DNA of 64,000 nucleotides from Candidatus Omnitrophota bacterium (GTDB lineage Bacteria; Omnitrophota; Gorgyraeia; VGKH01), in contig JAKLEP010000002.1 in NCBI GenBank assembly GCA_022703055.1, positions 96,480-160,479 on the forward strand, given 5' to 3'. Below are positions 36,102-54,688 of this stretch, piece after piece (positions within the stretch are counted from its first letter, which is position 1; every line of letters begins with the position of its first letter). The translations under genes and the position numbers were made by a program. The notes below the pieces were generated by a model that ran no database searches, was not told where the DNA came from, and saw only the letters and a list, made by a program, of their open reading frames with translations.

Positions 36102-36138
36102 ATGAAGCCCTGGTTGCGATAAGCAACCAGGGCTTCAT
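36102..36138 (-). terminator. Hairpin terminator; probable original terminator of tRNA-Asn, now separated from it by the inserted element
   Basis: Perfect 16-bp stem ATGAAGCCCTGGTTGC/GCAACCAGGGCTTCAT with a 5-nt loop, followed on the minus strand by UUUGG. It lies 33 nt from the left att core. Confidence 0.5.
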
Positions 36139-36170
36139 GTCTCTCTAATTTACCAAAAAGAGAGAATAAC

Positions 36171-36179
36171 TGGCTCCCC
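36171..36179. repeat. Left att core (attL), TGGCTCCCC
   Basis: Identical to the last 9 nt of tRNA-Asn (complement GGGGAGCCA) at 54613-54621. It sits exactly where host-like AT-rich sequence changes to GC-richer sequence. Confidence 0.6.
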
Positions 36180-36602: not shown

Positions 36603-36628
36603 GAATTCCCGAATAGTTCAATTGGTTC

Positions 36629-38464: not shown

Positions 38465-38495
38465 AAAAAAGCCTCCTGACAAAAATAGATGCATT

Positions 38496-39731: not shown

Positions 39732-41461
39732 TTCGTATTATGACCTATCGCCTGATAAACTGGTTTTGGAAACTCAATGCGAACAGGTTGACGGTAAATC
39801 GGGTGCGTTAATAACAACTCACCTTTATTGAGTCTCGTTAAATTTGATTTAACATCTTGTGAAATAAACCTATAAGTCGGGTCGGCGAGCTCCGATGAAT
39901 CACTGCGACCGATCACTTTCGTTGAACAGTTTCCTACAACCTGACCATGTACTTCACTCATAAACTGCTCTGCGGATATTAATACAACTCCAAGTGATCG
40001 TCCTCTTGCCGCTATATCCAAAACATAATCAAGGATAGACGATTCGCCTTCGCCTTTGCGGGCAGGAGCATATTTATTTAACTCATCAACAAAAATGAGA
40101 ACCTTCTTCGGCAATTCACTGCGCTCATCAACTGTTGCTTCAGCATACATGCCATAAACTTCTTTGATGATATGACCAAAAACCAAAGAGCGTTCTTCAT
40201 CTTGTAGTTTTGCAATATCCACGACCATTGTTTGGCCGCCTTGAATTTTTCTTACTTCTTCTCCAAGATTTGCGGCTCTTTTTTGGCTTCGTTGTTCGAC
40301 AAATATTCCTGACTGTCTATTTTTAACAACGCGCCTTAAAATTCTGATGAAACGCCCAACAGAAGAAGCTGCTACCTGACCATATTTTTGCGGGATACCT
40401 TTATCCATCAAAGGTGCTCCATTTAAAAGCGCATCCCATGTACGTACAGCCTGCCATGCTTTTTCGCCATTCATTACCCCTTGCTGAATTTCACCTATAA
40501 GTGCTCCTAGCGTATCCCACGGATCAGGAACTCTAACCAATAAGTCTAAACCCGGGCCGGGATTAGATCGATCCCCAATAACATCCTCTAAAGAATAAGC
40601 ATAGGTGAAAAACTGATCCGGTGGCTCGCCAAAACAATTTGGCAATCCTGTCGTCTGAGTCGACTTACCCCATGGTAATAGGTATCGAACATTATCAAAA
40701 GCTTTTGGCTTTAAGCCCATTGATTCCCAGAAGGCAATTTCTTCAGGTTTTATACCAGTGCGGGCTTTGTCTATAACAAGTAAGTCATTTTGTTTTACAT
40801 TTAACAAAATAACTCCGATTTCGTTAGCATTTGAGGACTGCAAAATTGACTGAATCAGGAACATTGCATATGATGTTTTTGTAGCAAGTCCGGAAATCCC
40901 TGAAATATTCATATGTGCGCCTTCAGGTCCAAGAATGTACCTTTTATCAAGGAAAACTCGTGCTTTTGTACCATTCGACATCCGAATAATACCTGCAGGT
41001 ATCGTAATTTTTTCCTTATGTTCTTTTTCATATTCGAACATTTTGTCAATCCCCAACGCTACATGTATTCCAGCTTCATCTGCAAATTGGACGGGCGACT
41101 CATTTTGAACAGGCATATAAATTCCCATCGGATATCGTTGATTAACCGCTGGGTCAAAGTTTGCTAAAACATTCACCTCAGCCACATTAGCTCCTTGCCG
41201 AGGGGTTTGAGCCGCACCTTCCGTACTTCCAAAATCACTAGAAATATAATTTGAAAGATGCGTAGGAGCATCGGTAATCTGCTTAATATTTGTTACAAGA
41301 CCGAAGGTACGAGTACCTTGCATCTGATCCGCCTCAATAATGTCAAATGGATTAACAATTTCTTCTGGCGCAAGCCAGAAAGAAAACTTCTCGGATGAGT
41401 TTGGTTCATTTTGTGTTGCTGATGCTTTCCCGATGATATTTTTTTTATTTTCTTCTGCCAT
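39728..41461 (-). CDS. HerA/FtsK-type ATPase (DUF87-like)
   Basis: 577 aa. N-terminal barrel-like region (FSFWLAPEEIVNPFDIIEA...TFGLVTNI), degenerate P-loop GISGLATKTS, Walker B VLIFVDELNKY, and GVVLISAEQ...TKVIGR resembling HerA sensor/arginine-finger regions. Confidence 0.7.
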   Translation of the reverse strand: MAEENKKNIIGKASATQNEPNSSEKFSFWLAPEEIVNPFDIIEADQMQGTRTFGLVTNIKQITDAPTHLSNYISSDFGSTEGAAQTPRQGANVAEVNVLANFDPAVNQRYPMGIYMPVQNESPVQFADEAGIHVALGIDKMFEYEKEHKEKITIPAGIIRMSNGTKARVFLDKRYILGPEGAHMNISGISGLATKTSYAMFLIQSILQSSNANEIGVILLNVKQNDLLVIDKARTGIKPEEIAFWESMGLKPKAFDNVRYLLPWGKSTQTTGLPNCFGEPPDQFFTYAYSLEDVIGDRSNPGPGLDLLVRVPDPWDTLGALIGEIQQGVMNGEKAWQAVRTWDALLNGAPLMDKGIPQKYGQVAASSVGRFIRILRRVVKNRQSGIFVEQRSQKRAANLGEEVRKIQGGQTMVVDIAKLQDEERSLVFGHIIKEVYGMYAEATVDERSELPKKVLIFVDELNKYAPARKGEGESSILDYVLDIAARGRSLGVVLISAEQFMSEVHGQVVGNCSTKVIGRSDSSELADPTYRFISQDVKSNLTRLNKGELLLTHPIYRQPVRIEFPKPVYQAIGHNTK

Positions 41462-41490
41462 GATTAAGCCTCCATTTTTCTTAAAAATTC

Positions 41491-42612
41491 TTAAACCTTA
41501 AATGGCCACTTGAGACCAGCTTTTAATGCCTCCGTAGATATAAAACCATTCTTTACTGCCTGTTCAGCTAGATAAATCGCATAAATATGCGCATGCCATC
41601 TTGAATCTTTACCATGCGGCGTAGCTTGTCGTTCTGCAAGTAATGCAGAAGATAATTCATTAATTATATCTGACGATACCGCCTCCTTACTTGGATTAGG
41701 CAACTCTACTTTAACTACCCCCATCAATGGATAATCCATTTGTTTCTGTTCTCGTAATCGTAGAAACCATATTGCGGCATCGCCTGAACGCGCTGAAAAC
41801 GCACATGTTCGAGAAGAATAAGGCAGGTCGGCCAACAATTCGTAGAGGTTAACGGTTTTACTGCCAAGTTTACCTCCCTGTAATTGGAATGTTGGTTCCT
41901 TGCTAAAAGACTTATTAAGCCAGCAAATATTTGGAATATCCTTGTACATATAAAGATCTTTCCCGGCGTTCCCATCCATTATCAACCAATGATTTTTACC
42001 ACGCTTCAAATCTCGTCCAAGCTCCTCTTCAAGTTTAGCCATTAAATGATGCGCTTTATGCGGAGCTCGAGATCTCGGCTCTTTTCCCGGAGATGTTCTT
42101 TCAGTTTCACCGTCTTCTTCTTGAATATCGCAAAAAGCAAACCGATCGCCTGCTTTTTTCACTAATTCTTCAACCTGATCACCAAAAGAAACAGATTTTT
42201 TATCCATCATCAAAATAATTTTATGACATGACTTTGCAACATTTACGTGTCCGTTATCCTGACGATAAACACACGCCGACCCAATCTGTGAAACATGAAT
42301 TGATGTTCGTCTTTTTCCTTCTACGACATCCCCCAAAAAGAATGTGCGCGCAGAACCATCAATAAAATATCTCAGCATATGTTTTTCTTGACGATAAAAA
42401 GGCGTTAATTGGACGTAAGGGCTCCTGTTAGGAGTCTCAAGAAGTACTTCAAAATAATTATCATCTCCCATACGAAGACGATCAATAACTTCGGCATGAT
42501 CCGGACGCACCATATCTTCCATGGCTTGTCCAGTAGCAGGAAGAACCTTAGCTTCTTTAGTAATTAATTCCAAAGCTGGTTTTAAATCTTTAAAAGGGTT
42601 ATCGTATTTCAC
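41491..42612 (-). CDS. NurA-like nuclease (RNase H-like fold), putative
   Basis: 373 aa. FIDGSAR, KLEEEL, LIMDGNAG and a C-terminal H-rich helix (RWHAHIYAIYLAEQ) occur in the order of the NurA catalytic motifs. The GTG start overlaps the upstream stop (GTGA) and GGAGG lies 6 nt upstream. Confidence 0.55.
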   Translation of the reverse strand: MKYDNPFKDLKPALELITKEAKVLPATGQAMEDMVRPDHAEVIDRLRMGDDNYFEVLLETPNRSPYVQLTPFYRQEKHMLRYFIDGSARTFFLGDVVEGKRRTSIHVSQIGSACVYRQDNGHVNVAKSCHKIILMMDKKSVSFGDQVEELVKKAGDRFAFCDIQEEDGETERTSPGKEPRSRAPHKAHHLMAKLEEELGRDLKRGKNHWLIMDGNAGKDLYMYKDIPNICWLNKSFSKEPTFQLQGGKLGSKTVNLYELLADLPYSSRTCAFSARSGDAAIWFLRLREQKQMDYPLMGVVKVELPNPSKEAVSSDIINELSSALLAERQATPHGKDSRWHAHIYAIYLAEQAVKNGFISTEALKAGLKWPFKV

Positions 42613-45600
42613 ATTTCCTCCAAGGATCGTTTAATTTCTTGTAGATCAGTCAATTCAAAACCCCAAAGTTTCGCAACCTCTTGATCGATTTTTTCTTCAA
42701 TTGACAAAACAGTTTTAGAATCTCCGGAGGCAACCGCAGTATGCGCTGACTTAGAAAGGTCAGCTATTCTTCTATGATGGTTGAGAGACGAAGAAAACAA
42801 GGGGACATTAACGTTATTCAAAATATGGGGCGCAATCTGTGTCCCGACTACATATCGTTTGACAGTTAACCGAATTATCGACGAATTCAAAACGCCGCAT
42901 AAATAATGAGCAGACATTTCATCATCGGTGCTAACAGTTATCACACGATGATCAGGAATAATTATTTTTTCTCCTAGAACTTTGTCTTGTATCGGAGCAA
43001 TAACAGCACAGCGAAAATCAGAGTCAATATATCTCCAACCAACTTTATATTTTGATAGAGTATAGGGGCCTACATTAAACATAGACCAAAATGGATCAGT
43101 TTCTTTATAATAACGTTTAAATGCCGCACGGGCTCTCAGCTGAGTTTCAAACCGTCTTAAATATCCATTAAGACTTGGATATTTTGTTTCCATTAAGGAA
43201 ACAGCGATCCCTTTGCGTTTGGTTGCATCTTGAGTGAATAACACATAAAGTGATGGGGAAGAACTCCAACGTTCCAGATCACGACCCCTTAACAAAGGGA
43301 ACAAAAGTTCATTTTCTACCGCGGCTTGTGTTAAAGCCGCTTTTTTCTTAGCCCCTTCAACTACATTAGAAATTATTATCCTACCATCAGGTCTTTTATC
43401 AGAAATTTCTACCCAAAAAATCGAATTAGCACCGCCAGTATTACATCCTTCGTGTGCGTTATATTCAGATTTCCCTAAAACTTTCTGCATAACTTTAAGT
43501 GCTCGTGGACGAGCAGTAAGCCACGCAGATGTTGGGTCATTTTTATCTATTGGCTCGGCATTCCAAACCTGAAATGTAATTTTTTCCTTTGTAACTTCTT
43601 CATAGGGAGTATCAAAACCAATGGATCCACCTCTGCCAGTAATCCTCTTTTTCCAGCATTGATAAGAAACTGGATATGAAACTTTTCGACCTTTTAAAAA
43701 GACTACGACCGAGGTTCGATTTGTAGCCCCTTCGAAGGGCTTTAATTCAACCATGTCTTCAACGACTAGAGGGGCAAAATGAATTTCATTTGGCAATATG
43801 AATCTTCGGAAACCTTGACCCGCACCCGATGTTTTAAATAAATTTTGAGGCAATACGAAACCAATTTTTCCTTGCATCTCAAGATAACGATCTATTGAAA
43901 CAAATGTCATAAGCATGGCTATATCTTTTTTGCCTTTACCCAAAATTGTATCCATCCCTCCATGAGGAAATAATCCATACTGTTCCCATAATGGCTTTGT
44001 CTGCGTACGATATTCATCAGGTAGACTTTCCCAATTAACCCATGGAGGGTTGCCAACAATATATTGGCATGGGTCAAGAAATAATGGGGCAAAAGAATTC
44101 TTAATAATACGCGCCCAAACCCCATTTAATCCTTGCGCGTGTAGCTCTTTTAGCTGATTCAACAATAGGTTAAGTCCGGATTTAGCTTCCTCCCACTCCT
44201 GTAAGGGTAAAGTAATTGCTTTTTCAACACGATTAATAAAAGATTCGGGCCTAACGTCAGACTCAACACTCTCATCAAGAATATCGGCGAGTATATCCAT
44301 TCGTTCGCGACGCGCAAAAGCGTGTGGTATTTTAAATATACCAACAGAAGTTTTTAATGAATAAACCCCTCCATCAAACAACCCTTCACCTTTTGCAGGC
44401 GTTAAAACTGAATCCGCCTGATATACAGGTATATCTATTTCACTTTTACGTTCTTTGAGTAATTCGCCAAGTGCCAATAAATAATTAGTTCTTGCCGCAA
44501 TTACGGCCAAGGGATTCAAATCAATACCAATAATGTTTTGTAGAATAAGCTTCAGCGTTTCGGCTGGTATTCGTTTCTCTTTATCAGATCGATCACGAAT
44601 ATATTTAATAAGAATGACAAGAAATGTTCCCGACCCACATGAGGGGTCAAGAACCCTCTTTGTCACATCACCTAAATCACGACTTCCCAAAGTTTGTCTG
44701 ATTAAACGTTCTGCAAGCCAATCTGGGGTATAGTATTCACCCAAATCATGCCGTATTTCTCGGGGCAATAAATAATGGTAAAGCTTCTTTAAAAGGTCGC
44801 GGGCATTTTCCGGGGCAAGTTCAAGCGTACCCGGGTCATAATCTGCAAGGCGTTTTATAAGATCACTTATACCATCCTCAATTTCATTATCCCAAGCGGG
44901 TATATACCAACCAAAAAAATCCCCTTCAAGAAAATTGCGAATACCATACTCTCGAAAAAGACCGCCTCTCTCAAGATCAGCCATAGCTAATCTTAAATCA
45001 TCACCTTTTTTTAGAGCAAAAGCAGACAATGGCGCGGACTTCCCTCCAGCAAAACGTGCCGTGGCAAGCGATGCGACAAGTTTGATCAATAATGCGTAAT
45101 ATGTATGCAGGACAAAGAAAACTTTTGCGGCATCTAAATGTTTGATTTGTTCTTTTGTCCATAATGAACTTACGAATGAGCGAAATTCCGCTTTTGATTC
45201 AATCTTATCTGCCCATGCCTTATAATCAGTAGCTTCGCTGAAAAATAATCGCCACTGATCAAATAATTTACCGACTAATGGATGTTTTGTGCTATGCAAA
45301 GCCGTATAAAGAGCACGAATAGCGCGTTGGGCACGAATATTTTTTGGGCCAAAGTCGTTAACTAAATTCTCTGGAACTAATGCCGCGCCTTTTGAAAGGG
45401 AGAATAACAGCCTCAAGAATAGTATGGTCGATGACGAATTAACAGCTAAAGGATCGTCAACCGACCAGCCTTCACCGACTCTACGTACAAAGATAAAATA
45501 ATGACCATCAGTAGCTACACCAGCCAGTCTTTGCGCTTCACGCTTTTCGCGTTTTGCGACATCATCAATATAGTCCTTGACTTGTTTAATAACAGCTTGA

Positions 45601-45872
45601 TTTGCAGAAGTAGCATTTGAACTTTTTAAAATACCCGGACGCTTATATTCAAGTATTAAGCGATTATAAACGGAATCAACCCTGCCTCGAGCCACAGAGA
45701 ACTCATCGCGAGGAATAATAGTAAGACCTACCGATAACCCTGCATCTTCAAGTATTCTTGCGGCCTCTCTACGAAAATCCGCTTCATTAGTAGATTGCCG
45801 AGCCACTGAAGATATTTGCCGAGCGATATTAGGCGCGAGTTCAATCGTTATTTTCTCAATATCTTTTTCCAT
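42609..45872 (-). CDS. MmeI-like type IIL/IIG restriction-modification enzyme (PD-ExK nuclease + N6-adenine MTase + TRD)
   Basis: N-terminal D-x9-E-x-K (GRVDSVYNRLILEYKRPG), then MTase motifs EYYTPDW, VLDPSCGSGTFLV and VGNPPW, and a C-terminal region of about 450 aa. The ORF-track start at 45929 is a TTG; the ATG at 45872 gives 1087 aa. Confidence 0.8.
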   Translation of the reverse strand: MEKDIEKITIELAPNIARQISSVARQSTNEADFRREAARILEDAGLSVGLTIIPRDEFSVARGRVDSVYNRLILEYKRPGILKSSNATSANQAVIKQVKDYIDDVAKREKREAQRLAGVATDGHYFIFVRRVGEGWSVDDPLAVNSSSTILFLRLLFSLSKGAALVPENLVNDFGPKNIRAQRAIRALYTALHSTKHPLVGKLFDQWRLFFSEATDYKAWADKIESKAEFRSFVSSLWTKEQIKHLDAAKVFFVLHTYYALLIKLVASLATARFAGGKSAPLSAFALKKGDDLRLAMADLERGGLFREYGIRNFLEGDFFGWYIPAWDNEIEDGISDLIKRLADYDPGTLELAPENARDLLKKLYHYLLPREIRHDLGEYYTPDWLAERLIRQTLGSRDLGDVTKRVLDPSCGSGTFLVILIKYIRDRSDKEKRIPAETLKLILQNIIGIDLNPLAVIAARTNYLLALGELLKERKSEIDIPVYQADSVLTPAKGEGLFDGGVYSLKTSVGIFKIPHAFARRERMDILADILDESVESDVRPESFINRVEKAITLPLQEWEEAKSGLNLLLNQLKELHAQGLNGVWARIIKNSFAPLFLDPCQYIVGNPPWVNWESLPDEYRTQTKPLWEQYGLFPHGGMDTILGKGKKDIAMLMTFVSIDRYLEMQGKIGFVLPQNLFKTSGAGQGFRRFILPNEIHFAPLVVEDMVELKPFEGATNRTSVVVFLKGRKVSYPVSYQCWKKRITGRGGSIGFDTPYEEVTKEKITFQVWNAEPIDKNDPTSAWLTARPRALKVMQKVLGKSEYNAHEGCNTGGANSIFWVEISDKRPDGRIIISNVVEGAKKKAALTQAAVENELLFPLLRGRDLERWSSSPSLYVLFTQDATKRKGIAVSLMETKYPSLNGYLRRFETQLRARAAFKRYYKETDPFWSMFNVGPYTLSKYKVGWRYIDSDFRCAVIAPIQDKVLGEKIIIPDHRVITVSTDDEMSAHYLCGVLNSSIIRLTVKRYVVGTQIAPHILNNVNVPLFSSSLNHHRRIADLSKSAHTAVASGDSKTVLSIEEKIDQEVAKLWGFELTDLQEIKRSLEEM

Positions 45873-45906
45873 TATTTGCTTCCATTGCTTCCTGATAGTC
45901 AAAACG

Positions 45907-46503
45907 TCAGGGAGTTCGTAAAGTCTCAAAGAAATCTTTTATTGGCTTCAATGATGCATTATTGTGGTCCCAATAGCCAGCCTGTGCCGCTTCATTAATC
46001 CTTTTTCCGGGGTCGTCATTAGCACTCAAAAAAGCATATGTTTTTGCCTTATCTTTCTTATGATCAGGAATAATCACGCCTTTGGTTGCCAAACAGCCCA
46101 TAAAAGAATTGATGCACTGATTTTTATCACAATTATTTTGTTCGACAATACGCATCAACAATGTTTCCAACATTCCATTGTCTCGATTATTAGGCAAAAT
46201 GAAGAAGCTGGTTTTTATCGAGAGGCTTAATGAGGAGAGAATATTTTCTGCGCTTCGCTTTGCATCATCAAAACTATCATCGGCGTCTCGAACAATTGCA
46301 AAACATTTAACATTGTCAACAAAACCTGCCTGCTGGATAACTGCAGATACGTTATCATTGTTTGGCTTACCATTTACCCCAAAGAATTGAATATCATTAA
46401 ACGCCCATTCCTTACAAAATTTAGCCAAAACTCCAGCGTCATCTTTACCCTCAACAACAACAAGAATTGGTTTGGAAATAGCCTGATCTTGCACAGCCAT
46501 CAT
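45907..46503 (-). CDS. Small Toprim-like protein (DUF4276/DUF3226/DUF4435-like), partner of the upstream ATPase
   Basis: 198 aa. ILVVVEGKDDAGVL (Toprim glutamate motif) and AIVRDADD (DxD). Its start overlaps the ATPase stop (ATGA). Confidence 0.6.
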   Translation of the reverse strand: MMAVQDQAISKPILVVVEGKDDAGVLAKFCKEWAFNDIQFFGVNGKPNNDNVSAVIQQAGFVDNVKCFAIVRDADDSFDDAKRSAENILSSLSLSIKTSFFILPNNRDNGMLETLLMRIVEQNNCDKNQCINSFMGCLATKGVIIPDHKKDKAKTYAFLSANDDPGKRINEAAQAGYWDHNNASLKPIKDFFETLRTP

Positions 46504-47573
46504 CTGATCTCCAAATCATTCTCTATCGCGGCTTTGATACTTCCTTCATTATAGGCGATGCTCTGGATACCTTGTTTTGTTTCTTCAAAACGAAAAACAC
46601 CGAGGTCAAATTTTTGCTTTCCCGAAAAAGCTTCTACGGCAGAGCGAACACAATCCAAACTATGGGTAGTAGCAATAACTTGAACATCATACTGCTTCGC
46701 AATTTTCTCAATAACCTGCCAAATAGGCAATAATGCTTTCCAGTGCAATCCGACTTCAATCTCATCAACAAGTAAAACGCCTCCGGGAACACTGAGCATG
46801 CTAACTATTAAGCGAAGCACTTTTATCATACCCAAACCAGATAAAGCTAGCGGGATCAAACGGTCTTTTCCAATATCGATTAAAATCGTAATATCACCAC
46901 CTCGCGGAGCAATTTTAATGTCTTTAATTCGTGGTTCCAAAATTTTCAAGGCCCCAACAACTTCGGGATCTTTTTTTGTTTCCAATAACCGCCCTAAGCG
47001 ATCCGCATCTTCTTTTGGGTTATACGATACGTTATGCAAGAATATTGCCTCAAAGAAAGCTGGCCGAACGTTATCTCCGAACGAAATCTGTTTCTTCTCT
47101 GGAAATAAAGTTAGTTTATTGGCGAAATTGTCTTTCTTTGAGTTTTCATAAACAAATTCGCAAAGGACCCTAGACTGATCTCCCCGCAAAGCCATTCTTC
47201 CTTCTGAGTCACTTGTCGACATAAGGATGGTTGAAGGGGCGCTGGATTTTATTGTAACCTTATTCCAATTATCTTCATTTTCAGCCCGTAAGATTATTTC
47301 TTTATCAGTGTTAAAATTATGGAAAAAGCTATTCAAAGGCGATTCAGTTGCCCCTGCTCCTGACAGATTAATACTAATACCTGGCATACCACGGAAAGTA
47401 TCCGTGCGTAACATGAGTTCTCCAGAAGTCCCTGCCATTATGAACATGGTTTCAAGAAATGCTGTTTTCCCAACATTGTTTTGTCCAGTTATCAGATTAA
47501 CTTGTTTTAATCCATCAACTGTTATTTTTTCGAAGCACCTGAAATTTTGAACTTCGACTTTTGAATAAATCAT
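46500..47573 (-). CDS. ABC-type (AAA_15/AAA_21-like) ATPase
   Basis: 357 aa. Walker A GQNNVGKT, signature-like LSGLGMIKVL, Walker B LLVDEIEVGLH and H-loop ATTHS. Confidence 0.85.
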   Translation of the reverse strand: MIYSKVEVQNFRCFEKITVDGLKQVNLITGQNNVGKTAFLETMFIMAGTSGELMLRTDTFRGMPGISINLSGAGATESPLNSFFHNFNTDKEIILRAENEDNWNKVTIKSSAPSTILMSTSDSEGRMALRGDQSRVLCEFVYENSKKDNFANKLTLFPEKKQISFGDNVRPAFFEAIFLHNVSYNPKEDADRLGRLLETKKDPEVVGALKILEPRIKDIKIAPRGGDITILIDIGKDRLIPLALSGLGMIKVLRLIVSMLSVPGGVLLVDEIEVGLHWKALLPIWQVIEKIAKQYDVQVIATTHSLDCVRSAVEAFSGKQKFDLGVFRFEETKQGIQSIAYNEGSIKAAIENDLEIR

Positions 47574-47614
47574 TTTATTCCTCCTATTGAAGCTCTCGAT
47601 GAGAGCTTTTTTAT

Positions 47615-47791
47615 TTAGCCATTACTCCGGTTTTTTATAAATTCCTCCAAATCTTCTGGTTTAATTTTCCACTGTCCTATTTTTACAGCTTTGATCTCCT
47701 TGCGGGCGATTAGATCACGCACCCATTCTTCTGTGATGTCTAGTTTTTTGGCTACTTCGGGAACGGTTAGATATTTGCGAAGGTCGTCCAT
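47615..47791 (-). CDS. Excisionase-family (MerR/AlpA-like) HTH protein, 58 aa (not in ORF track)
   Basis: Hand translation: MDDLRKYLTVPEVAKKLDITEEWVRDLIARKEIKAVKIGQWKIKPEDLEEFIKNRSNG. It matches the excisionase-family DNA-binding domain pattern (..VA..L.i....v..l.....i.a.kiG..w.i....l..f). Confidence 0.7.
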   Translation of the reverse strand: MDDLRKYLTVPEVAKKLDITEEWVRDLIARKEIKAVKIGQWKIKPEDLEEFIKNRSNG

Positions 47792-47947
47792 GTAAAATAC
47801 CTCTGCTTTGTGTTTAGATGAGTATATTTGAGTCCTTCCCAGTCCTTATAAATCCATATTTTATACTCATCCAACCGCCAAGTCAAACGGAATTATGTTT
47901 TATAACAAAGATGTAAAGCAGTACTGAGAATTGGTCTTCCGTATCTC

Positions 47948-48150
47948 GTCACAAAAACAATATGCTTTTTGTGACAGCGTTCCCGTGCCTTTACTGACAC
48001 ACTGACACGGGTGATGTCAGTGGATGTCACTGAAAAATCCCTAATTTTCTCCAAAAACACATAGTTTTGAAGGGGAATTTGCCTTATTTGGGGCATTTTC
48101 ACCGACCTGCTGACACTGACACGAGTTTTTGAAACTGATATCACTGAAAG
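47948..48150. repeat. Repeat cluster: 10-bp inverted repeat plus two CTGACAC-CTGACAC...TCACTGAAA modules
   Basis: Inverted repeat GTCACAAAAA (47948-47957) / TTTTTGTGAC (47966-47975). CTGACAC occurs at 47994, 48002, 48110 and 48116. TCACTGAAA occurs at 48027 and 48141. Confidence 0.5.
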
Positions 48151-48328
48151 ACCGCGCCTCGCCCGACCCTCGGCAAACCCCCTCCCGAAGGACCCATCGC
48201 TTAAAGGATTCCGGAGTCACGCGCAGTCGCAGGGTCACCTCACGCCAACCAGGTAAATCGAAACTCACATCAACCCAGAAGCCCGGCTTCCATTTCTTCT
48301 TTTTGCGTTTACGCCAATACCATCCCAT
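48041..48328 (-). CDS. Hypothetical basic protein (doubtful)
   Basis: GGAG lies 5 nt before the ATG. The N-terminus is MGWYWRKRKKKKWKPGFW. The ORF overlaps the repeat cluster, so coding status is uncertain. Confidence 0.25.
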   Translation of the reverse strand: MGWYWRKRKKKKWKPGFWVDVSFDLPGWREVTLRLRVTPESFKRWVLREGVCRGSGEARSFSDISFKNSCQCQQVGENAPNKANSPSKLCVFGEN

Positions 48329-48460
48329 AACGCTCCTCTAAAAAATGCGTGCGGAGGAGGGCAAGAGGTACCCTCTGCCAGACGCGTTTATCTGGCAAAA
48401 CTTTCACGATGGAAGAGTTAACAAGAACATCGATCCGGTTTCTCCGCATTAAACTTTCTT

Positions 48461-49144
48461 TTATACAGTGACCGCCTCCGATTGCTCTGCTGGTTTTACC
48501 TGTTCCGGCTTATACTTCTTCATCAGGCTTTTTATCTCCTCATCCAGATCGAAGTGTGACACCCAGTGATCCCTGCTTCGAATATTTTCTTCAACGTCCG
48601 CTATTGTTGGACGGCGCAACTCAGCAATGCCTTTGTCTATCTCAGCATGAAAGACCTTGTGCGCGTCTGATCCCAACCCGGGGCTAAACTCAGGAAATTC
48701 TTCAAGATGCCGTCTCGTGGTCTCCGGATGCCCGTAAATAGCGAACGCTAACGCGAACAGCCTGCCTTTAGCCCGCCATAGCTCAAGAATAGCTTTGTCT
48801 TTGTCTCTATTCATCGAGTTTCTGTCTGCGATGATCCGTTTCATTTCTTCATCTCGCTTGGCGACAAGCGATTCTTCGAGCTTCGCTTTCAGCTTCGCGA
48901 GACTTTCACTGATAACATCGAAGTTGATATCGCACTCGCCCAAAGCTAAGTCCGCCTGCTTTATGGCGTCGGGAATAACCCGCTCACCGCACATGACACG
49001 GCTTCTGATTTCTTTCACTTTCTCTTTTGCTTCGACTTTCTCTTGCTCACAAAGCTTCTGCTTTTCTTCAAGAGCTACGATCTGTTCGGCGATCTCTTCG
49101 GGTGTGCTTTTACCCCTTAACACGTTTAAAAAATTGATCTTCAT
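48461..49144 (-). CDS. Coiled-coil hypothetical protein
   Basis: 227 aa, E/K-rich heptad-like sequence, no recognised motif. Confidence 0.5.
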   Translation of the reverse strand: MKINFLNVLRGKSTPEEIAEQIVALEEKQKLCEQEKVEAKEKVKEIRSRVMCGERVIPDAIKQADLALGECDINFDVISESLAKLKAKLEESLVAKRDEEMKRIIADRNSMNRDKDKAILELWRAKGRLFALAFAIYGHPETTRRHLEEFPEFSPGLGSDAHKVFHAEIDKGIAELRRPTIADVEENIRSRDHWVSHFDLDEEIKSLMKKYKPEQVKPAEQSEAVTV

Positions 49145-49232
49145 GGTCTTGTCCTTTCTGTTTGTTTACATTGATATTTTTATCCACCCAATAAATCCGA
49201 TAATGTCAATCCACGGCACACCTCCTTTTTTC

Positions 49233-49514
49233 GTGAGCAACGTGAGGATACTTTCTTGCTTCTTCTACAGGCTCTTTATGATTACTTTCGTGTGTGAATT
49301 TCCCTTTATCCTGTCTTGTTAAAATTAAGAAAATTACCCTCACAATCCTCACAACTTCACCTAACACCTTGTAGATACAGAGATTGACCATGTGAGCAGA
49401 GCCGTGAGCAAGGCGTGAGGAACACTTGTTTCCTCACAGCTCAAAACGGCCGAGGGTCATCGTCCTGCTCACAAAAACCGTCTCTGCTCACATCTTGCTC
49501 ACGCCCATCCTCAC
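49233..49514. repeat. Cluster of 12-13 GTGAG(C/G)A heptamers in both orientations
   Basis: Forward copies at 49233, 49242, 49392, 49404 and 49415. Reverse copies (TGCTCAC/TCCTCAC) at 49337, 49346, 49431, 49466, 49485, 49496 and 49508. Includes the hairpin GTGAGGAA-N7-TTCCTCAC (49415-49437). Confidence 0.6.
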
Positions 49515-51825
49515 ACCCGTAATAATCATCATCGAGCACGGCGCCCGGCATCTTCTTAAGGATAAAAACCCGCCTTCCTGTACCGGCTTCACGTTTATTT
49601 TTCCGCGCGATATCGATCCCCACATTACGCATCACCGGAGCGATACGCGTTAATTCCGTTGATAGCCACTTGGCGTTGGCCGGAATGCCTTTTTCGTCTT
49701 TGTCCGGATTGATAAGCGAAAGAAGCTCGGCCGCTGAACCGTGCCACTCGCCGTTATTCTCGAGCACAATATTGATCAGTTTCTTGGCAAGGGCGCTGTC
49801 TTCGGCAGTGTCCTGCCATTTACGGTCAACTGACTCCTGATACTTCTTGAAAAATTCATCCCGGGTAAACCCCAGAGCCTCGGCCAATGCCGCGCCCCAC
49901 TGGGCAAAGTCCGCCATACGGAATTTCTCATGGCCTTTGACCTGATGGACAATAGCCATCGCGTTTGAAAGGGCAGTAAAGAACCCGCCAAGGATAAACG
50001 GTAATGACGCGTTCCACTGTTCGGTCATTTCTTTTTCCGAGCGTGTTTCTTTGAGCAAAGGGATATCGAAAATAATCGAGCGATCTAAAAGGTCCGGCCT
50101 CCACGCCGAAGCGCCGATACCGTTTAAGACAAAACACCGGCGATACGCCCGAATAAACTCATCGTCATTGGTATAAAGCGAGCGTTTCATGTCGCCTTCA
50201 CCGGTCACAGCTCGGCATAAAAAGTCGCTAAACCACTCCTGAATCTTGGAAATATTGTCAAAAGTATTTATCCAGTGTTTGTCCGCTGTCATCTGAGCGT
50301 GTTCCAAATCTTTCGGCGTTGAAATGAGCATGACCTTTGACGGGTCCACGAGCCCCTTGACCCGTCGGCTGTTATTTGATTTACCCGTGCCTTGCTCGCC
50401 GTTTTGATTAGGGATAACGTGCGGGATATTGGGAATAAAAAATGATGCTACCGAGATCAAGAAAAGACAATGGTCGTCTTTATGAATATTGCAGAATTTC
50501 AGGAAATCTTTGGGATTGCCGCCGGTAACCGGAATGACTTGCTCAGCCTGATGCTGATAACGTCTGAATATCGGAGGAAGATAACAGACCACCCAGCCGT
50601 CTTTCGTGATCCTGACACCACGCCAATCAAGCGTGGTAAGGTCATAATAAAAGTCTCCGTTATAAACGCCTACCCGGTTGAAAAGCTCTATCTGAGGCGC
50701 GTCCTGACAGCGGGCTTCGATCTGGATGCGCGCTTGTTTTAAGGCTTCGTTATTCGGAGGCACGCCGAACTTGTGGCGATATCTTTTCGCGCCCCAGTTA
50801 CGGAAATGCGCGCTTGCTGTCGGGCAAACCTCAACATGATCACCGAATGGCAGGACCACAAAAGGACTGCCTTGCTGGTCACGAAAATAATGTTTTATCT
50901 TTTCCTCATATTCCCGGGTGATTACTTCGCCTTGGGTTGGCTTGCGCTTGAGGGCATCTTCGGATGAGTCGCCGAAAGCTTCCGCGCAATCACTGACCGC
51001 TTTTTCGATAACAGACTCGCCGTATGTCTTGCCGTCGCCAAAGTGTCGCTCGTCCCACTTTGGGCGCATAAGACCGGAATGCCGGAAAATCTTGTCCATG
51101 AGCGCCGGATTTCTACCTGTCCAGAAGGCGAGTTTATTGCAGAAAGCAAGGTCTGCCTCGGATTGAGAAGGATAGGCGTCCTGCCATTTACCTTCATAAA
51201 GTTTGAAGAACACTTCGCTGTCATTGCTTTTTCTGATTCGGTTAAGAAGCGTTCGCTCTTTTCTGTGTTCTTCTTCAAACCGCTCTGATTCTTCAAATAG
51301 CTTGGCGAGTTTGTCTTTTCTTTCTTCAATGGAATTCTTACAGCCGGACACGATGTTGCCGGTAATGGTAAAGAAACGATTGCCCGAATACATCTCAACG
51401 CCCAAAGCGCTGAATTTTCTGTCCTTGGGAAGCGCTCCTTTACAGATGATATGAATACCCGTCCCGGTCGGTGAGAATTCGGTGTAACTATCGAGTAGCT
51501 GGATTATCTTTTTCGCGTTCGAAGCGATCACACCATCCTTAACGCATCTGTCTATATCAATGCCGATATAAGGCGGGGTAATCGCGAATCCTAGGGCGTC
51601 AAGATTGAGCGCTTCGGCCTTGGCGATAACTTCATCAAGCGGCCGCCATGTTACCGGATCATTCGACTTGGCATAGCCGCCGGTCGCGACATTGATCGGC
51701 TCTTTCTTGGGCTTTTTGTCTTTCTGGGGTGTGAATTTGAATCCCACGCCGATAGGCGGGGCTTTAAGTTCTGGCGGGATATTGTCCGCTTGCCATTTCT
51801 TCGCTATTCTTTCCTCGGTTTTCAT
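49441..51825 (-). CDS. Bifunctional prim-pol primase / SF3 (D5/P4-type) helicase replication protein
   Basis: 794 aa. Prim-pol motifs GIDIDRCV, GTGIHIICKG and VEMYSGNRFFTITGN, then the P-loop GEQGTGKS in a D5/P4-like C-terminal NTPase domain. Confidence 0.9.
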   Translation of the reverse strand: MKTEERIAKKWQADNIPPELKAPPIGVGFKFTPQKDKKPKKEPINVATGGYAKSNDPVTWRPLDEVIAKAEALNLDALGFAITPPYIGIDIDRCVKDGVIASNAKKIIQLLDSYTEFSPTGTGIHIICKGALPKDRKFSALGVEMYSGNRFFTITGNIVSGCKNSIEERKDKLAKLFEESERFEEEHRKERTLLNRIRKSNDSEVFFKLYEGKWQDAYPSQSEADLAFCNKLAFWTGRNPALMDKIFRHSGLMRPKWDERHFGDGKTYGESVIEKAVSDCAEAFGDSSEDALKRKPTQGEVITREYEEKIKHYFRDQQGSPFVVLPFGDHVEVCPTASAHFRNWGAKRYRHKFGVPPNNEALKQARIQIEARCQDAPQIELFNRVGVYNGDFYYDLTTLDWRGVRITKDGWVVCYLPPIFRRYQHQAEQVIPVTGGNPKDFLKFCNIHKDDHCLFLISVASFFIPNIPHVIPNQNGEQGTGKSNNSRRVKGLVDPSKVMLISTPKDLEHAQMTADKHWINTFDNISKIQEWFSDFLCRAVTGEGDMKRSLYTNDDEFIRAYRRCFVLNGIGASAWRPDLLDRSIIFDIPLLKETRSEKEMTEQWNASLPFILGGFFTALSNAMAIVHQVKGHEKFRMADFAQWGAALAEALGFTRDEFFKKYQESVDRKWQDTAEDSALAKKLINIVLENNGEWHGSAAELLSLINPDKDEKGIPANAKWLSTELTRIAPVMRNVGIDIARKNKREAGTGRRVFILKKMPGAVLDDDYYGCEDGREQDVSRDGFCEQDDDPRPF

Positions 51826-51827
51826 CT

Positions 51828-52058
51828 TTATACTCCGTTTTGAAATATGAAATCTTTAACCCTTCTGTAGCACTGAAATAACTGCTCCTCTTTGGAATTA
51901 CTGAAAAACTCGTCCGCCAGCTCCTTGGTCTTTTCGCAGTCATCAAAAAGCACCCGTTTTTGCCTTCCGGCGCCGGCAATGCCTTTCATGGCACAGCCCT
52001 TTGAGACCAGATAGGCGGCCAGATATATGTTTCCAGCTTCAAAATATTGTTCTTTCAT
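51828..52058 (-). CDS. Small phage/plasmid-type protein (DUF5659-like?)
   Basis: 76 aa, ending 2 nt before the primase start. The family assignment is from memory of the pattern LAAYLVSKG....G and is weak. Confidence 0.4.
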   Translation of the reverse strand: MKEQYFEAGNIYLAAYLVSKGCAMKGIAGAGRQKRVLFDDCEKTKELADEFFSNSKEEQLFQCYRRVKDFIFQNGV

Positions 52059-52083
52059 CTTGTTTCCTTTGTTTCCTCAAGGC

Positions 52084-52727
52084 GTATATACGACGAAATC
52101 CTCAAAAGTGTCCCACCCATACATACAGATTTTCCTGCCAAAATGTCGCGCTCTAATTCGTACATACGTAAAAATTCTTCAAAGTGTCTCAGCCCTCACC
52201 GTGTACATACAGATTTTTTCGCCGATTTGTCCCCCCTTTAGCGGGTATATACGTAAAAAAATCTCAAAATGTTGCAGGCTTCCTGATAGTACATACAACT
52301 TTTTTTACCAAAGTGTTTCACCAAACCTTCAAATATTCCTTCCACAGCATACATTCCCCGTTTTCCATAAAAGTGTCGGAAGTTTTTTACCCTAAGCATG
52401 TATTCAGGATTTTTCGTCAAAGTGTCGGATTTTTCTTCCTAAGCGTATATTCCGGAAATCCCTCCAAAGTGTCGGAATTTTTTTCTCCCTATGCGTACAT
52501 ACCGGAAAATTCCGCGAACTGTCGGAATTATTTTCATTTCACCTGCAACACTTTAAGAAAAAACATCGTATATACGCTCTAAGGCGGGACACTTTTCGAA
52601 AAAATCCGGTATATACGCCTTAGGGGAAAGATTTTTCCGACACTTTCGGGAAAAAAGCGGAATACATGTATGGGAGGACTTTTTTTAAAGACCCGCGCGA
52701 CATTTCGGAAAAAAAAGTTGTATGTAC
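52084..52727. repeat. Iteron-like array: about 14 degenerate units of roughly 35-60 nt (many 41-44 nt) with a bipartite GTAYATAC ... AAAGTGTC core, switching orientation near 52550 (putative origin)
   Basis: Cores occur at 52084, 52119, 52160, 52203, 52245, 52289, 52348, 52397, 52444 and 52494, each followed about 11 nt later by AAAGTGTC-like boxes. Inverted copies (GACACTTT ... GTATATAC) occur at 52568, 52609, 52662 and 52720. Confidence 0.8.
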
Positions 52728-52732
52728 GAGAT

Positions 52733-52951
52733 ATGGAAGAGAAAAAGACACGTTTAAAAGTAGAAGTCGAATATATCGACTGCCCGGACGGGGACGATCG
52801 GCTGGCTAAGACCGCCAAGCTCCTCTCCACGGGCGTTTATGAATACCTTAAAAAGAAAGGGTCGCTCAAGATTGACCCCCAGCGCCAAGAAAAGGTCCGG
52901 GAAGCCATGGAAAAAGCCCGGGAAATCATCAATCGTAATATTGAGGAATAA
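52733..52951 (+). CDS. Small acidic/basic protein upstream of the integrase (possible regulator or directionality factor)
   Basis: 72 aa from the ATG at 52733 (MEEKKTRLKVEVEYIDCPDGDDRLAKTAKLL...). The longer ORF-track start at 52670 lies inside the repeat array. Confidence 0.45.
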   Translation: MEEKKTRLKVEVEYIDCPDGDDRLAKTAKLLSTGVYEYLKKKGSLKIDPQRQEKVREAMEKAREIINRNIEE

Positions 52952-53001
52952 TGATTGATTCAGCTTGGCTTGTCGCGGGGTTGTGATAGGGTTGGGTCGC
53001 T

Positions 53002-54654
53002 ATGGCAGAGACAAATAAACGATGTGGATTCGTGATCAGGGTCAGTACGGACAAACAAGCCCGGAACCCCGAAGGATCACTCACAAACCAGCTCCAACGC
53101 TTACAGGCGCATGTTGAATACAAAAATACCGCCTGCGACGAGCATTGGGTTGAGGCTGGCCGCTATATTCTTAAAGGCGTATCCGGCAAGGACTCGATCC
53201 GAAGCCCGGAATTCGCCCAGCTATTCGCTGACATGGAATCCGGCAAGGTCAATACAGTCATCTGCACCGCGCTTGACCGCATAAGCCGCTCGGTCAAAGA
53301 CTTTCTGAATTTCTTTGAGATCCTCACCAAGTACAACGTGGAATTCGTCTGCTTAAAACAGAACTACGACACCACCTCATCACAAGGGAAGCTCTTCATA
53401 ACAATCATGATGGCGCTGGCAGAATTCGAGCGCACGCAAACTTCCGAGCGAAACCGGGACGCCACTATCGCCCGGGCAGAGAGGGGCTTATGGAACGGCG
53501 GGCATTTGCTGGGCTACAACTTAAACCCGGCGAAAAAAGGATATCTTGAGATCAATGACGAAGAAAAAGCGATCGTGCAATTCGCCTTTAAGAAGTATCT
53601 GGAATGCGGCTCAGTCATCGAGACCGCCCGGACGCTCAATGATCACGGCTTTCGGACAAAAAGCTACACCTCCCGACGGAATAAAATAAAACCACCTCAA
53701 AAATTCGGCAAGTCATCGACAAAGCAGATGCTCGTCAATCTTGCCTACATTGGCAAAAAGGAAATCAATAAACGCTGGATATGGTCAGATCAGGACAAAC
53801 TGCCGGATTACAAAAAATACCGGGTTGTTCCGGCTGTCTGGGACCCGATCATCGATGAGGACACGTTCTACAAAGCCCAGCATCTTATGAAACGAAACTG
53901 GTCGACCCGGCATAATGGTGTAACGCCAGTCAAACATTTGTACCTGTTAAATGGTGAATTATTGTTCTGCGAAAAATGCGGTAAGCCAATGGAAGGAACC
54001 TGCGGGACCGGACGGCAAGGCATGAAATATTATTATTACCACTGCAAGCACTGCAAATTCAAGATGCCTGCCGGTGAGGTTGAAGGCGTGGTCATCGATA
54101 AGCTCAAAGAACTCGCCACGAACGATGAAGCCGTGGCAATCATGGTCGAGGCCGCGAATAAAGAACTTCACAAAGAGATGCCCCAACTAAAAGGACAGCG
54201 TGACACACTCCAAAAGCGACTCGATGATGTCAAGAAAAGCGCGGACGGCATCATGGAAAAGTGGACAGCCATGGCCACGGATGACAACAGCGTGTTCTTG
54301 CGTGAGAAGCTGGACGAGCTGGCCAAGCAACGAAAAGACATCGAATCCGGACTTTCTGCCTTGGATATTCAAATAAGCGATATCCAGCGGGAGGCGATCA
54401 ATAAGGATGACGTCCTTGAGGCCCTTGGCAAGTTTTCCGAGCTCTTTGAGACGCTCGCCCCATACCTGCGCAAGGAAATCATCCGCCATGTCATGAAGAA
54501 GGCCGTATTGAGCCCCACGAGCATAAAAATAGCCCTGCTCGGGAAACATCCCAAAACAGGGCTATTCGATACAGCGGCGCCTGACGGCGCAATCCGCTGT
54601 CAGACGTCAATATGGCTCCCCCTCGAGGACTCGAACCTCGGACCTGGTGGTTAA
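53002..54654 (+). CDS. Large serine recombinase (integrase), integrated-state form
   Basis: Catalytic-Ser motif CGFVIRVSTDKQ, a resolvase domain, a recombinase domain, a zinc ribbon (CEKCGKPMEGTCG...YYYHCKHCKF) and a coiled coil. The last 13 codons (WLPLEDSNLGPGG) are read from the antisense strand of tRNA-Asn. Confidence 0.93.
   Translation: MAETNKRCGFVIRVSTDKQARNPEGSLTNQLQRLQAHVEYKNTACDEHWVEAGRYILKGVSGKDSIRSPEFAQLFADMESGKVNTVICTALDRISRSVKDFLNFFEILTKYNVEFVCLKQNYDTTSSQGKLFITIMMALAEFERTQTSERNRDATIARAERGLWNGGHLLGYNLNPAKKGYLEINDEEKAIVQFAFKKYLECGSVIETARTLNDHGFRTKSYTSRRNKIKPPQKFGKSSTKQMLVNLAYIGKKEINKRWIWSDQDKLPDYKKYRVVPAVWDPIIDEDTFYKAQHLMKRNWSTRHNGVTPVKHLYLLNGELLFCEKCGKPMEGTCGTGRQGMKYYYYHCKHCKFKMPAGEVEGVVIDKLKELATNDEAVAIMVEAANKELHKEMPQLKGQRDTLQKRLDDVKKSADGIMEKWTAMATDDNSVFLREKLDELAKQRKDIESGLSALDIQISDIQREAINKDDVLEALGKFSELFETLAPYLRKEIIRHVMKKAVLSPTSIKIALLGKHPKTGLFDTAAPDGAIRCQTSIWLPLEDSNLGPGG
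54613..54621. repeat. Right att core (attR), TGGCTCCCC
   Basis: Identical to 36171-36179. It forms the 3' terminal GGGGAGCCA of tRNA-Asn. Confidence 0.6.
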
Positions 54655-54688
54655 CAGCCACTCGCTCTACCGACTGAGCTAAGGGGGA
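54613..54688 (-). tRNA. tRNA-Asn (anticodon GTT), CCA encoded
   Basis: Minus strand: TCCCCCT-TA-GCTC-AGTCGGTA-GAGC-G-AGTGG-CTGTTAA-CCACC-AGGTC-CGAGG-TTCGAGT-CCTCG-AGGGGGA-GCCA. This folds as a cloverleaf with a perfect 7-bp acceptor stem, a GTT anticodon and a TTCGAGT T-loop. Confidence 0.93.

Follow-up and report, generated by a model that had tools for sequence, protein, structure and literature searches.

Can the gene for an integrase carry the attachment (att) site of its own element within its coding sequence, so that integration changes the integrase itself? The question is raised by a 64,000-nt stretch of DNA from a Candidatus Omnitrophota bacterium (contig JAKLEP010000002.1, positions 96,480–160,479 of the forward strand), referred to below as the window. 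Positions 36171–54621 of the window are an integrated element of ~18.4 kb whose target is the 3′ end of a tRNA-Asn(GTT) gene. The element is plasmid-like, with a primase-polymerase/iteron backbone and a cargo of defence genes, and its insertion into the tRNA can be attributed, as judged from the sequence, to a large serine recombinase (LSR) encoded at its right end. In this element attP lies inside the integrase gene, int, and integration partitions the gene, the feature that also defines the SSV-type integrases. The split of int by its att site is very probably correct as a description of gene topology. The best explanation of the locus as a whole, a plasmid-like element with attP inside int and a product joined to a helix-turn-helix (HTH) domain, Int-HTH, in a state-dependent manner, is likely to hold.

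An integrase gene divided at the att core

The 9-mer TGGCTCCCC, the reverse complement of the tRNA 3′ end GGGGAG-CCA, occurs exactly twice in the window, as the attL core at 36171–36179 and as the attR core at 54613–54621, both on the plus strand. The only tRNA that ARAGORN finds in the window is an intact tRNA-Asn(GTT) on the minus strand at 54613–54688, whose CCA complements the TGG at 54613–54615 and which supplies the right (B′) arm of attB. On its own the repeat is weak evidence, with 0.45 occurrences expected per window and at least two copies in 6 of 100 shuffles, and the case rests on the context of the two copies.

At the right end, the integrated form of the integrase is an open reading frame (ORF) of 550 codons on the plus strand (53002–54654), consisting of a complete LSR core and a 10-residue tail antisense to the tRNA. 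The 9-mer encodes W538-L539-P540, after which the frame crosses the tRNA, T arm included, in antisense for 10 codons (LEDSNLGPGG) and reaches a TAA stop at 54652–54654; read from the sequence, this stop is the complement of U35-U36-A37 in the anticodon loop. The left (P) arm shared by attP and attR, CGCTGTCAGACGTCAATA, occupies 54595–54612 on the plus strand, within codons 532–537 (RCQTSI). At the left end, the frame is free of stops from 36123 to a TAG at 36600–36602, which leaves 140 codons after the core, including KEYARMLESGDAKNESDLARKVGISRVRIWQYTSLLSL. The first of these codons, at 36180–36326 (plus strand), contain the right (P′) arm of attP and the linker of the detached integrase C-terminus (EQFTGNWLLWHHTAILTEQGKWNHRIISVIRDGQTPEDARRIRPKPPKT), with no in-frame start; the first in-frame start at this end is a GTG at 36345. 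Pfam, AlphaFold2 (AF2) and Foldseek place a ParB/Noc/KorB-type HTH domain at 36327–36602 on the same strand, ending in the TAG. Joining 53002–54621 to 36180–36602 gives a single ORF of 680 codons, the reconstructed attP junction being CAGACGTCAATATGGCTCCCCGAACAGTTCACAGG (in longer form ...CTGTCAGACGTCAATATGGCTCCCCGAACAGTTCACAGGG...) and the reconstructed attB junction GAGAGAATAACTGGCTCCCCCTCGAGGACTCG (...AAAAAGAGAGAATAACTGGCTCCCCCTCGAGGACTCGAACC...). The original prediction, made from the sequence without database searches, had put the core at these two copies of the 9-mer and had proposed a 550-residue form with a tRNA-derived tail, a left-end frame open for 140 codons to 36602 and an uninterrupted fusion of 680 codons. 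The core placement held in every coordinate, and the two frames and their fusion were reproduced.

The left end also carries the marks of a host boundary. The G + C content (GC) steps exactly at the core, from 0.316 (36000–36170) to 0.546 (36171–36602). Read on the minus strand from 36170 downwards, the DNA that was once 3′ of the tRNA-Asn (36102–36165) contains two hairpins, at 36140–36165 and 36102–36138, the second with a 16-bp stem followed by UUUU (ΔG −40.2 kcal/mol, z = −7.9); the left (B) arm of attB ends ...GAGAGAATAAC. These hairpins are the probable terminator of the tRNA, orphaned by the insertion. A simple terminator scan did not call the left-end hairpin, which has just four U residues, and this identification is retained because of the RNA fold. 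The left flank of another Omnitrophota attL (locus L065) has the same layout, with a GAAGCCCTG...CAGGGCTT hairpin followed by TCTCTC...GAGAGA.

The same arrangement recurs in relatives, examined in a context set of 43 genome loci and 7 loci from a viral collection. A minus-strand tRNA-Asn(GTT) adjoins the end of int in 22 of the loci, which come from bins labelled Omnitrophota or Planctomycetes, from Dehalococcoidia and Chloroflexia, and from unclassified bins; the integrase family itself extends over Omnitrophota- and Planctomycetes-labelled bins, Dehalococcoidia, Chloroflexia, Elusimicrobia and others. The 3′ coordinate of the tRNA is the first base of the Trp codon in all 16 loci checked (14 with tRNA-Asn, 2 with tRNA-Arg). 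The two tRNA-Arg(GCG) loci (L028 3090–3166, L029 3828–3904) form a sub-clade in which the core is TGGCGTCCC and the junction peptide W-R-P, and comparison of the sequences indicates that the integrase codon covaries with the target tRNA.

Five loci (L015, L019, L020, L030 and L062) were considered as exceptions lacking a tRNA. At least four of them proved to have a tRNA-Asn(GTT) split by a group I intron in the anticodon loop (L015 3036–3267, L020 1928–2137, L030 1902–2113, L062 1748–1990). The introns match Rfam RF00028 with 68–81 bits and occur mostly in Omnitrophota- or Planctomycetales-labelled bins; ARAGORN misses such tRNAs. The fifth, L019, has flank sequence like that of the other four and gave no group I intron match.

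If the 9-mer match were due to chance, the element would end elsewhere and the left ORF would be an unrelated small HTH gene. The frequency of the repeat in shuffled sequences leaves some room for this. However, it is contradicted by the adjacency of the tRNA and its covariation with the integrase codon, by the GC step and the orphaned terminator, and by three results described below: the homology breaks at the core, the core-bearing ORFs at other left ends and the colinear long forms. A chance match can hardly be credited.

The att site is also constrained as DNA within the codons that it occupies. The P arm and core are identical among integrases that are just 65–76% identical overall. Where synonymous pairs are compared, the codons are the same in a fraction of 0.95 at positions 532–540, against 0.64 for conserved codons upstream, so that the constraint at codons 532–540 acts on the nucleotide sequence. 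In L068 this DNA (...CTCTGAGACCCCAGAC, TGGCTCCTC and GGGTAGGACTCGAACC in succession, then tRNA-Asn) lies in a different reading frame and encodes Q-T-G-S-S, and in L067 the core GGCTCCCC is read as G-S-P. The centre of the dyad symmetry in attP-type sites falls between T4 and C5 of TGGCTCCCC, with 14 of 23 positions matching in the site reconstructed from L014 and L065 and 17 of 23 in L033 and in L037; L001, L018 and L053 show less of this symmetry. Identity between the ends of an element is limited to 7–9 bp. Because the attL sites of L066 and L067 share nothing more of the core than GCTCCCC and GGCTCCCC, respectively, the crossover is placed inside this stretch, and its dinucleotide is predicted, most likely, to be the TC of TGGC-TC-CCC, at 36175–36176 in attL and 54617–54618 in attR.

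Short forms, long forms and orphaned tails

If int is split by integration, then databases should hold its halves and, more rarely, the undivided gene. With the fused 680-residue protein as the query, most relatives have 533–600 residues and cover 79% of it. Six cover 93–99%: P0001 (644 residues, 84% identity), P0006 and P0009 (679 residues each), P0102, P0103 and P0114. Long forms thus number at least six, with lengths of 644–740 residues, and further cases are an ORF in L018 and the fragment P0249, which aligns with P0103 across the junction. In all 19 homologues aligned, similarity reaches a near-invariant ...RCQTSIWLP and ends there. Beyond this point the T arm, read in antisense, encodes the tails of the short forms (REGSNLGPIG, LEDSNLGPGG and the like), and in homologues inserted at tRNA-Asn these tails have an identical length of 10 residues. 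The long forms have instead a variable linker of ~50–100 residues and then a conserved block, the HTH domain, which can be aligned with window 36330–36600; they are colinear with both parts of the window, including 36180–36602. Of the best 120 homologues, 55 carry a tail that is clearly antisense tRNA, another 21 end within four residues and 6 are long with the HTH domain.

It had been predicted that full-length homologues of about 680 residues, colinear with both parts, would exist if the two ends belong together, and these were found (P0001, P0006, P0009, P0102, P0103, P0114, the L018 ORF and P0249). Natural forms of ~540–550 residues together with stand-alone tails, which the same prediction had named as observations that would speak against it, are also present, but they do so only apparently, since both groups are halves of integrated copies. 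The short integrases are assigned as integrated halves because they end in antisense tRNA at the 3′ end of tRNA-Asn.

The other halves were sought with the window tail, which has 39 close relatives, all of 77–209 residues. Those that reach into the linker are attL junction ORFs, with unrelated N-termini followed by (W/K)LP, the conserved linker and the HTH domain. A profile search of 1.84 billion representative sequences gave 3134 matches, the best 150 of which all have 78–262 residues. At least 60 of 186 small tail ORFs hold the junction at a fixed distance from a YRNP motif, 52 residues in the WLP type and 27–33 residues in the (G/S)SP....RTF type, behind heterogeneous N-termini that are host DNA where checked (L065–L067). 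In L067 the DNA on the left of the core consists of a hairpin and then genes of the normal chromosome. L065 is the left end of an element of ~17.7 kb whose integrase is in L014 and whose cargo is Thoeris-TIR and DarTG; its junction runs from a hairpin through GAGAGATATAAAGA and TGGCTCCCC into GGGCAGTCGTCTGACTGCGG. The small 'stand-alone' tail proteins are thus orphaned C-terminal halves, which outnumber the fused forms because databases mostly sample integrated copies. The peptide GSP...RTF was also considered as integrase-derived sequence, in stand-alone genes with their own attP; this was rejected, as the DNA shows the peptide to be a second reading of the core, GGCTCCCC, in a different frame, and the genes on its left belong to the host.

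The linker is informative because of where it lies. The part compared, 48–50 codons directly after the core, is upstream of any start codon in integrated copies. Its ratio of non-synonymous to synonymous substitution rates (dN/dS) is 0.10 between the window and L066 and 0.21 between the window and L065, and it stays within 0.10–0.21 over these two pairs, L066/L065 and L001/L018. The HTH domain gives similar values, 0.13–0.25. The linker is thus under purifying selection. This, in codons that have no start of their own, and the keeping of the frame in two registers require translation from upstream, as part of a fused gene.

It could be argued instead that the att core does lie in an ORF but that the HTH domain is a stand-alone regulator, for example a repressor of the element, made from an internal start, read-through from int being incidental or silencing. 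The databases hold hundreds of small tail ORFs, and about 65 of the 186 start inside the linker; some 35–40 of the 186 begin at MIESGQ.../MLESGD..., immediately N-terminal to the helices of the HTH domain. An ATG is present at MTEQGKW in some relatives, and in the window JGI calls an 85-residue gene with a GTG start (P0133). However, gene callers pick a variety of starts, many of them in host DNA, and no Shine-Dalgarno sequence is seen before GTG 36345 or the next ATG. Nor would a stand-alone regulator account for selection on the codons between the core and any candidate start, for the absence of stops and frame breaks between the core and the HTH domain in all attL sites examined, in both registers, or for natural continuous Int-HTH ORFs in at least six diverged lineages. 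As a replacement for the fused gene, a stand-alone HTH protein is therefore improbable; the two readings are compatible and not exclusive.

The halves also appear to have been exchanged between elements. DNA identity over 420 nt on each side of the core is discordant, at 0.92 on the left and 0.51 on the right for the window and L053, 0.62 and 0.86 for L001 and L018, and 0.90 and 0.52 for L002 and L014. This pattern suggests that N-terminal parts and tails are mosaic and have been shuffled at the core. The N- and C-terminal parts of archaeal suicidal integrases likewise evolve separately, with hybrids arising by recombination at the site (PMC7253208).

Several observations weigh against an int gene that is still joined and split as proposed. 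A degenerate 41-nt pattern for attP, attB, attL and attR, run over the metagenome_contigs and viral_contigs collections, found no attP or attB of the element; it found three attR sites of relatives, and in the viral set nothing. The scanned collection probably lacks the window's own sample, and because it returned neither the attL nor the attR of the window, the negative result for the junctions says little. Exact-protein look-ups matched one host flank to six contigs of this organism and the other to five; every one of these carries the insertion, and no empty attB was found. No contig was demonstrably circular, and there were no terminal repeats in those examined in full. The window-type tail allele is fused in none of the 39 close matches and in none of the best 150 representatives, being present there in small ORFs only, and from the ATG inside the linker of some relatives the HTH domain could be made alone. 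The reconstructed attP of the window is off-register, with its best centre at 2.5 instead of 4.5 and 12 of 23 positions matching. In an AF2 model, described below, there is no confident contact between tail and core (predicted template modelling score, pTM, 0.35); with its disordered linker, the model is uninformative as to whether the tail docks on the core. Finally, the long forms could come from tandem arrays and not from circles.

On this last point, the long ORFs in databases would be junctions of tandemly integrated elements, in which the int of one is read into the tail of the next. Besides the lack of proven circularity for any long-form contig, this idea can draw on L018, which lies in a 43-kb contig of a metagenome-assembled genome (MAG) with mobile-element and defence genes on both sides, on an attL-like tail fragment 2 kb downstream of the long int in L002, and on the mosaic of N-terminal parts and tails. 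However, such junctions would be in frame only since every attL keeps its tail in frame, and this requires selection on the fused product. In L001, L002, L018 and L053, where no tRNA was found, minus-strand cargo lies directly 3′ of the long gene, just as it begins at 36629 after the tail in the window; in L001, L002 and L053 it follows at once, as expected of attP. L053 shares the window's backbone, namely the 794-residue primase-polymerase, the 76-residue DUF5659 protein and the iterons, and there the module adjoins a long-form integrase. A tandem origin of the long forms seems unlikely and, because conservation of the frame requires selection on the fusion, it would alter where the fused gene was sampled and not the conclusion that int and tail form one gene.

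The failure to find junctions might also mean that the copy in the window is a fixed and immobile remnant, whose topology is historical and whose 680-residue form is never made. The insertion is present in all six contigs of the same species, from several samples, no attP or attB junction was found, and the P′ arm of the window, GAACAGTTCACAGGG, lacks both the dyad symmetry of the family and the GGAC motif that other P′ and B′ arms have 5 nt after the core. However, both halves are intact ORFs, the tail has a dN/dS of 0.10–0.25 relative to L066, the genes of the backbone are also intact, with 92% identity to the long-form contig L053, and the collection scanned for junctions is probably one without the window's sample. 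Moreover, the window-type P′ allele recurs in L066, as CAACAGTTCTCAGGG after GCTCCCC, beside an unrelated left flank; this indicates an independent insertion, and hence an allele that works. That the window holds no more than a remnant is thus not the expected outcome, though a real minority chance. An int gene joined through attP in the free element remains the preferred reading.

Domain architecture and possible consequences of the split

What integration removes from the protein depends on where the core falls relative to its domains. The window protein has a Resolvase domain (PF00239, 104.9 bits, residues 12–162) in which the motif R13-V14-S15-T16 is invariant in 20 sequences, giving an N-terminal catalytic domain with a serine nucleophile, and a Recombinase domain (PF07508, 66.8 bits, residues 187–299). 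Only serine-recombinase domains are present; the window protein has no tyrosine-recombinase fold. The zinc ribbon (PF13408) scores 22.3 bits in the window protein, below the cut-off of 25.3, and is recorded for most homologues; C323, C326, C348 and C351 are invariant in the alignment, and the zinc-ribbon strands are present in the AF2 model. The layout of these parts was taken from the AF2 model of P0001, a close long-form homologue: the zinc ribbon runs from ~320, a coiled coil from ~375 to ~470 and the zinc domain ends at ~512. The model has helices at 347–414 and 417–453 and then beta strands at 488–502, the coiled coil being inserted in the zinc domain. Residues 509–562, which contain WLP, are disordered, with a predicted local distance difference test score (pLDDT) below 50, and a confident helical domain follows at 566–640. 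The cut is therefore predicted by the model to fall after the last element of the LSR core, so that the integrated ORF would keep all core domains.

The domain that is cut off was originally described as ParB- or HTH-like, and its fold bears this out. In the AF2 model of the tail, pLDDT exceeds 90 over tail residues 50–140, and Foldseek matches the model to the DNA-binding domains of Noc, ParB, KorB and SopB (probability 1.0, root-mean-square deviation 2.6–3.2 Å), with 28–31% identity to the Noc domain. The Pfam family HTH_ParB scores 18.9 bits in the window fusion (residues 592–672), against a threshold of 22.6, and is recorded for P0001 and several tail ORFs. The fused protein has no ParB/Srx N-terminal CTP-binding domain; the tail has just the linker before its HTH domain.

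The comparisons show the topology of the gene, the place of the att site, the fused form in relatives and selection on the linker at the level of protein, whereas a difference in function between the two forms is inferred. With attP in a disordered linker between a complete LSR core and a ParB/Noc/KorB-type HTH domain, integration splits the gene. At attR, int(1–540) gains 10 tRNA-antisense codons and ends at the anticodon-loop TAA, and at attL the segment for the linker and HTH domain loses its start. An attP-type junction, as formed by excision, restores the 680-residue Int-HTH. On the most economical hypothesis, one of two states, the free element would then make Int-HTH, in which a strand-rich segment and the HTH domain directly after the zinc domain, where the directionality factors of LSRs bind, might bias the reaction to integration, or serve autoregulation or tethering in cis. 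The inserted element would make a bare integrase, predicted to be catalytically complete, which could act in excision with a directionality factor.

That the two protein forms differ in function, with a real difference in directionality or regulation, as the original prediction had suggested for activity or directionality, is conceivable, although on balance it is not what we would bet on. A control of directionality or copy state encoded by the family in its own gene, in which the module of the free form locks integration or tethers or represses in cis and its removal licenses factor-dependent excision, is a speculative proposal and a doubtful one. If it is true, the product of recombination would be a sensor of its own state.

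Comparison with known systems shows what is shared and what is not. In LSRs that have been studied, attB usually lies in protein-coding genes, and targets at tRNA 3′ ends are unusual. To our knowledge, attP lies outside the int coding sequence in all of these, and none has been described with a ParB-type HTH domain or with attP inside int. A search of the literature, which was not exhaustive, found no report of a serine integrase with attP in its own ORF. The order of domains, catalytic, recombinase and zinc ribbon with a coiled-coil insert, is that of phiC31, Bxb1, A118/LI and SPbeta SprA, and short att sites with imperfect dyad symmetry round a central dinucleotide may be a further likeness to canonical LSRs, the symmetry being in register in some family members and off-register in the window. 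In the mycobacteriophages BPs, Brujita and Charlie, the subject of work by Broussard et al. in 2013, attP is said to lie in the repressor ORF, where integration at a tRNA reportedly removes a C-terminal degradation tag. There too attP is in an ORF, integration into a tRNA exchanges a C-terminus and the product depends on the integration state. However, it is the repressor that is remodelled in those phages, by a tyrosine integrase, whereas here it is the serine integrase itself, and a folded DNA-binding domain is exchanged. The likeness to ParB, Noc, KorB and SopB is confined to the fold of their HTH DNA-binding domain: the tail contributes ~90 residues at the end of a recombinase, and has neither a ParB/Srx CTPase nor a dimerisation domain, nor is there a partner of the ParA type.

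The closest precedent is the SSV-type of suicidal tyrosine integrase. For tyrosine integrases of archaea it is established that attP can lie within the integrase gene, and SSV1, pTN3 and the pT26-2 family resemble the present element in having attP within int, a tRNA target, a gene split on integration and mosaic halves (PMC7253208, PMC8371274). However, these are archaeal tyrosine recombinases that are split into two inactive pseudogenes, whereas here, in a bacterial LSR, a complete recombinase is predicted to be kept and an accessory HTH domain detached. On the structural model the integrase would thus be remodelled by integration and not, as in the SSV-type, destroyed. Directionality can be set by a polypeptide joined to the C-terminus, close to the zinc domain and to the foot of the coiled coil: an engineered C-terminal fusion of integrase to a recombination directionality factor (RDF) switches it (PMC5737554), the RDF gp3 binds the zinc domain (PMC5814800), and for natural extensions that follow DBD2 at the C-terminus, occlusion of the RDF site has been proposed (PMC12286644). 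These fusions and extensions are artificial or constitutive, whereas the extension described here would be toggled by recombination and is a DNA-binding domain, not a known RDF.

For integrating DNA into genomes in one direction, LSRs are the principal tools, and how they set direction is an active structural question, to which a natural system of two forms, of 540 and ~680 residues, would be relevant. The family also adds a new class of LSR with a compact and very conserved target, the 3′ end of tRNA-Asn, and extends the principle of attP inside the integrase from archaeal tyrosine to bacterial serine integrases. The position of the core in the gene explains the shuffling of N-terminal parts and tails. 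Elements of the family carry defence islands across several uncultured phyla.

Backbone, cargo and neighbouring elements

From left to right the element carries the tail fragment, the cargo, an HTH_17 gene, a 227-residue ORF, the primase-polymerase and DUF5659 genes, the iterons, a 93-residue ORF and int. The defence cargo (36629–47573, minus strand) was identified with PADLOC and with precomputed Pfam matches on the same-species contigs L054 and L059. It comprises NsnA/GmrSD-HNH, a type II methyltransferase, a HerA-like ATPase, a 373-residue ORF, a type IIG restriction-modification protein (MmeI-like) and a PDC-M38/AbiLi pair (DUF3226 and AAA_15). Its GC of 0.40 (36629–47573) equals that of the host, against 0.47–0.50 for the backbone (47600–54612); backbone and tail fragment together span 0.47–0.55. 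Relatives with the same backbone have other cargo: DUF3223 in L053, Thoeris/DarTG in L065 and a caspase-helicase in L002. Next to the cargo, a gene for a 58-residue HTH_17 protein of the excisionase family (47615–47791, minus strand; PF12728 on the identical genes in L059–L061) encodes a candidate directionality or regulatory factor.

The replication module (49441–52058, minus strand) consists of the 794-residue primase-polymerase, with an NrS1-1 pol-like HBD, and the 76-residue DUF5659 protein. Between this module and int, and overlapping the 93-residue ORF, is an iteron-like array (52069–52727) of ~14 repeats of GTAYATAC-N13-AAAGTGTC, ~10 forward and then ~4 inverted, which contains the palindrome GTATATAC. 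The array is probably the replication origin. It is kept upstream of int in L010, L012, L053 and L064 and is absent from this position in L014, whose element has a window-type tail. The iterons occur with two different tails, those of the window and of L053. They were considered as a general, parS-like target of the HTH domain, and this was rejected, as the array tracks the int/primase-polymerase backbone and not the tail allele.

The integrase gene is easily missed in annotation. In the equivalents of window 53002–54654 on three contigs of the same organism (L059 10736–12509, L060 1222–2995 and L061 1213–2986), public gene calls omit the integrase and give spurious ORFs on the opposite strand instead, and the exact 550-residue integrase is absent from a collection of 15 billion proteins. 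It is likely to be missing because its coding sequence overlaps a tRNA, and gene callers drop such coding sequences. The resulting blind spot is twofold, with the tRNA-overlapping integrase dropped and the orphan tails called as hundreds of unrelated-looking 'hypothetical' HTH proteins.

Some loci hold more than one recombinase or tail. Directly left of attL in L065 (7424–9492) is an unrelated large serine recombinase of 543 residues with a DUF2924 gene, and next to these come SNF2/PLD and MmeI-like genes. The DNA downstream of tRNA-Asn seems to be a hotspot for mobile elements. L033 and L037 are parts of one Dehalococcoidia contig, CAXXTF010000002.1, which is chromosomal and 1.49 Mb long. It carries two convergent integrase copies ~15 kb apart (L033 10001–11581 and L037 10001–11572) and a third fragment (L037 15739–16026, minus strand). 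The two copies and the fragment each have an attP-like site of strong symmetry (17/23) and a 60-residue tail that is conserved but lacks the HTH domain; they may have a different C-terminal module or another use, such as inversion. In L002 the second tail fragment (5137–5586), downstream of the long integrase gene P0006, is preceded by a hairpin and AAAAAGCTCCCC; it may reflect a nested or tandem arrangement or be a remnant. The 232-residue protein P0164 has two tail HTH domains in tandem, at residues 17–97 and 120–218.

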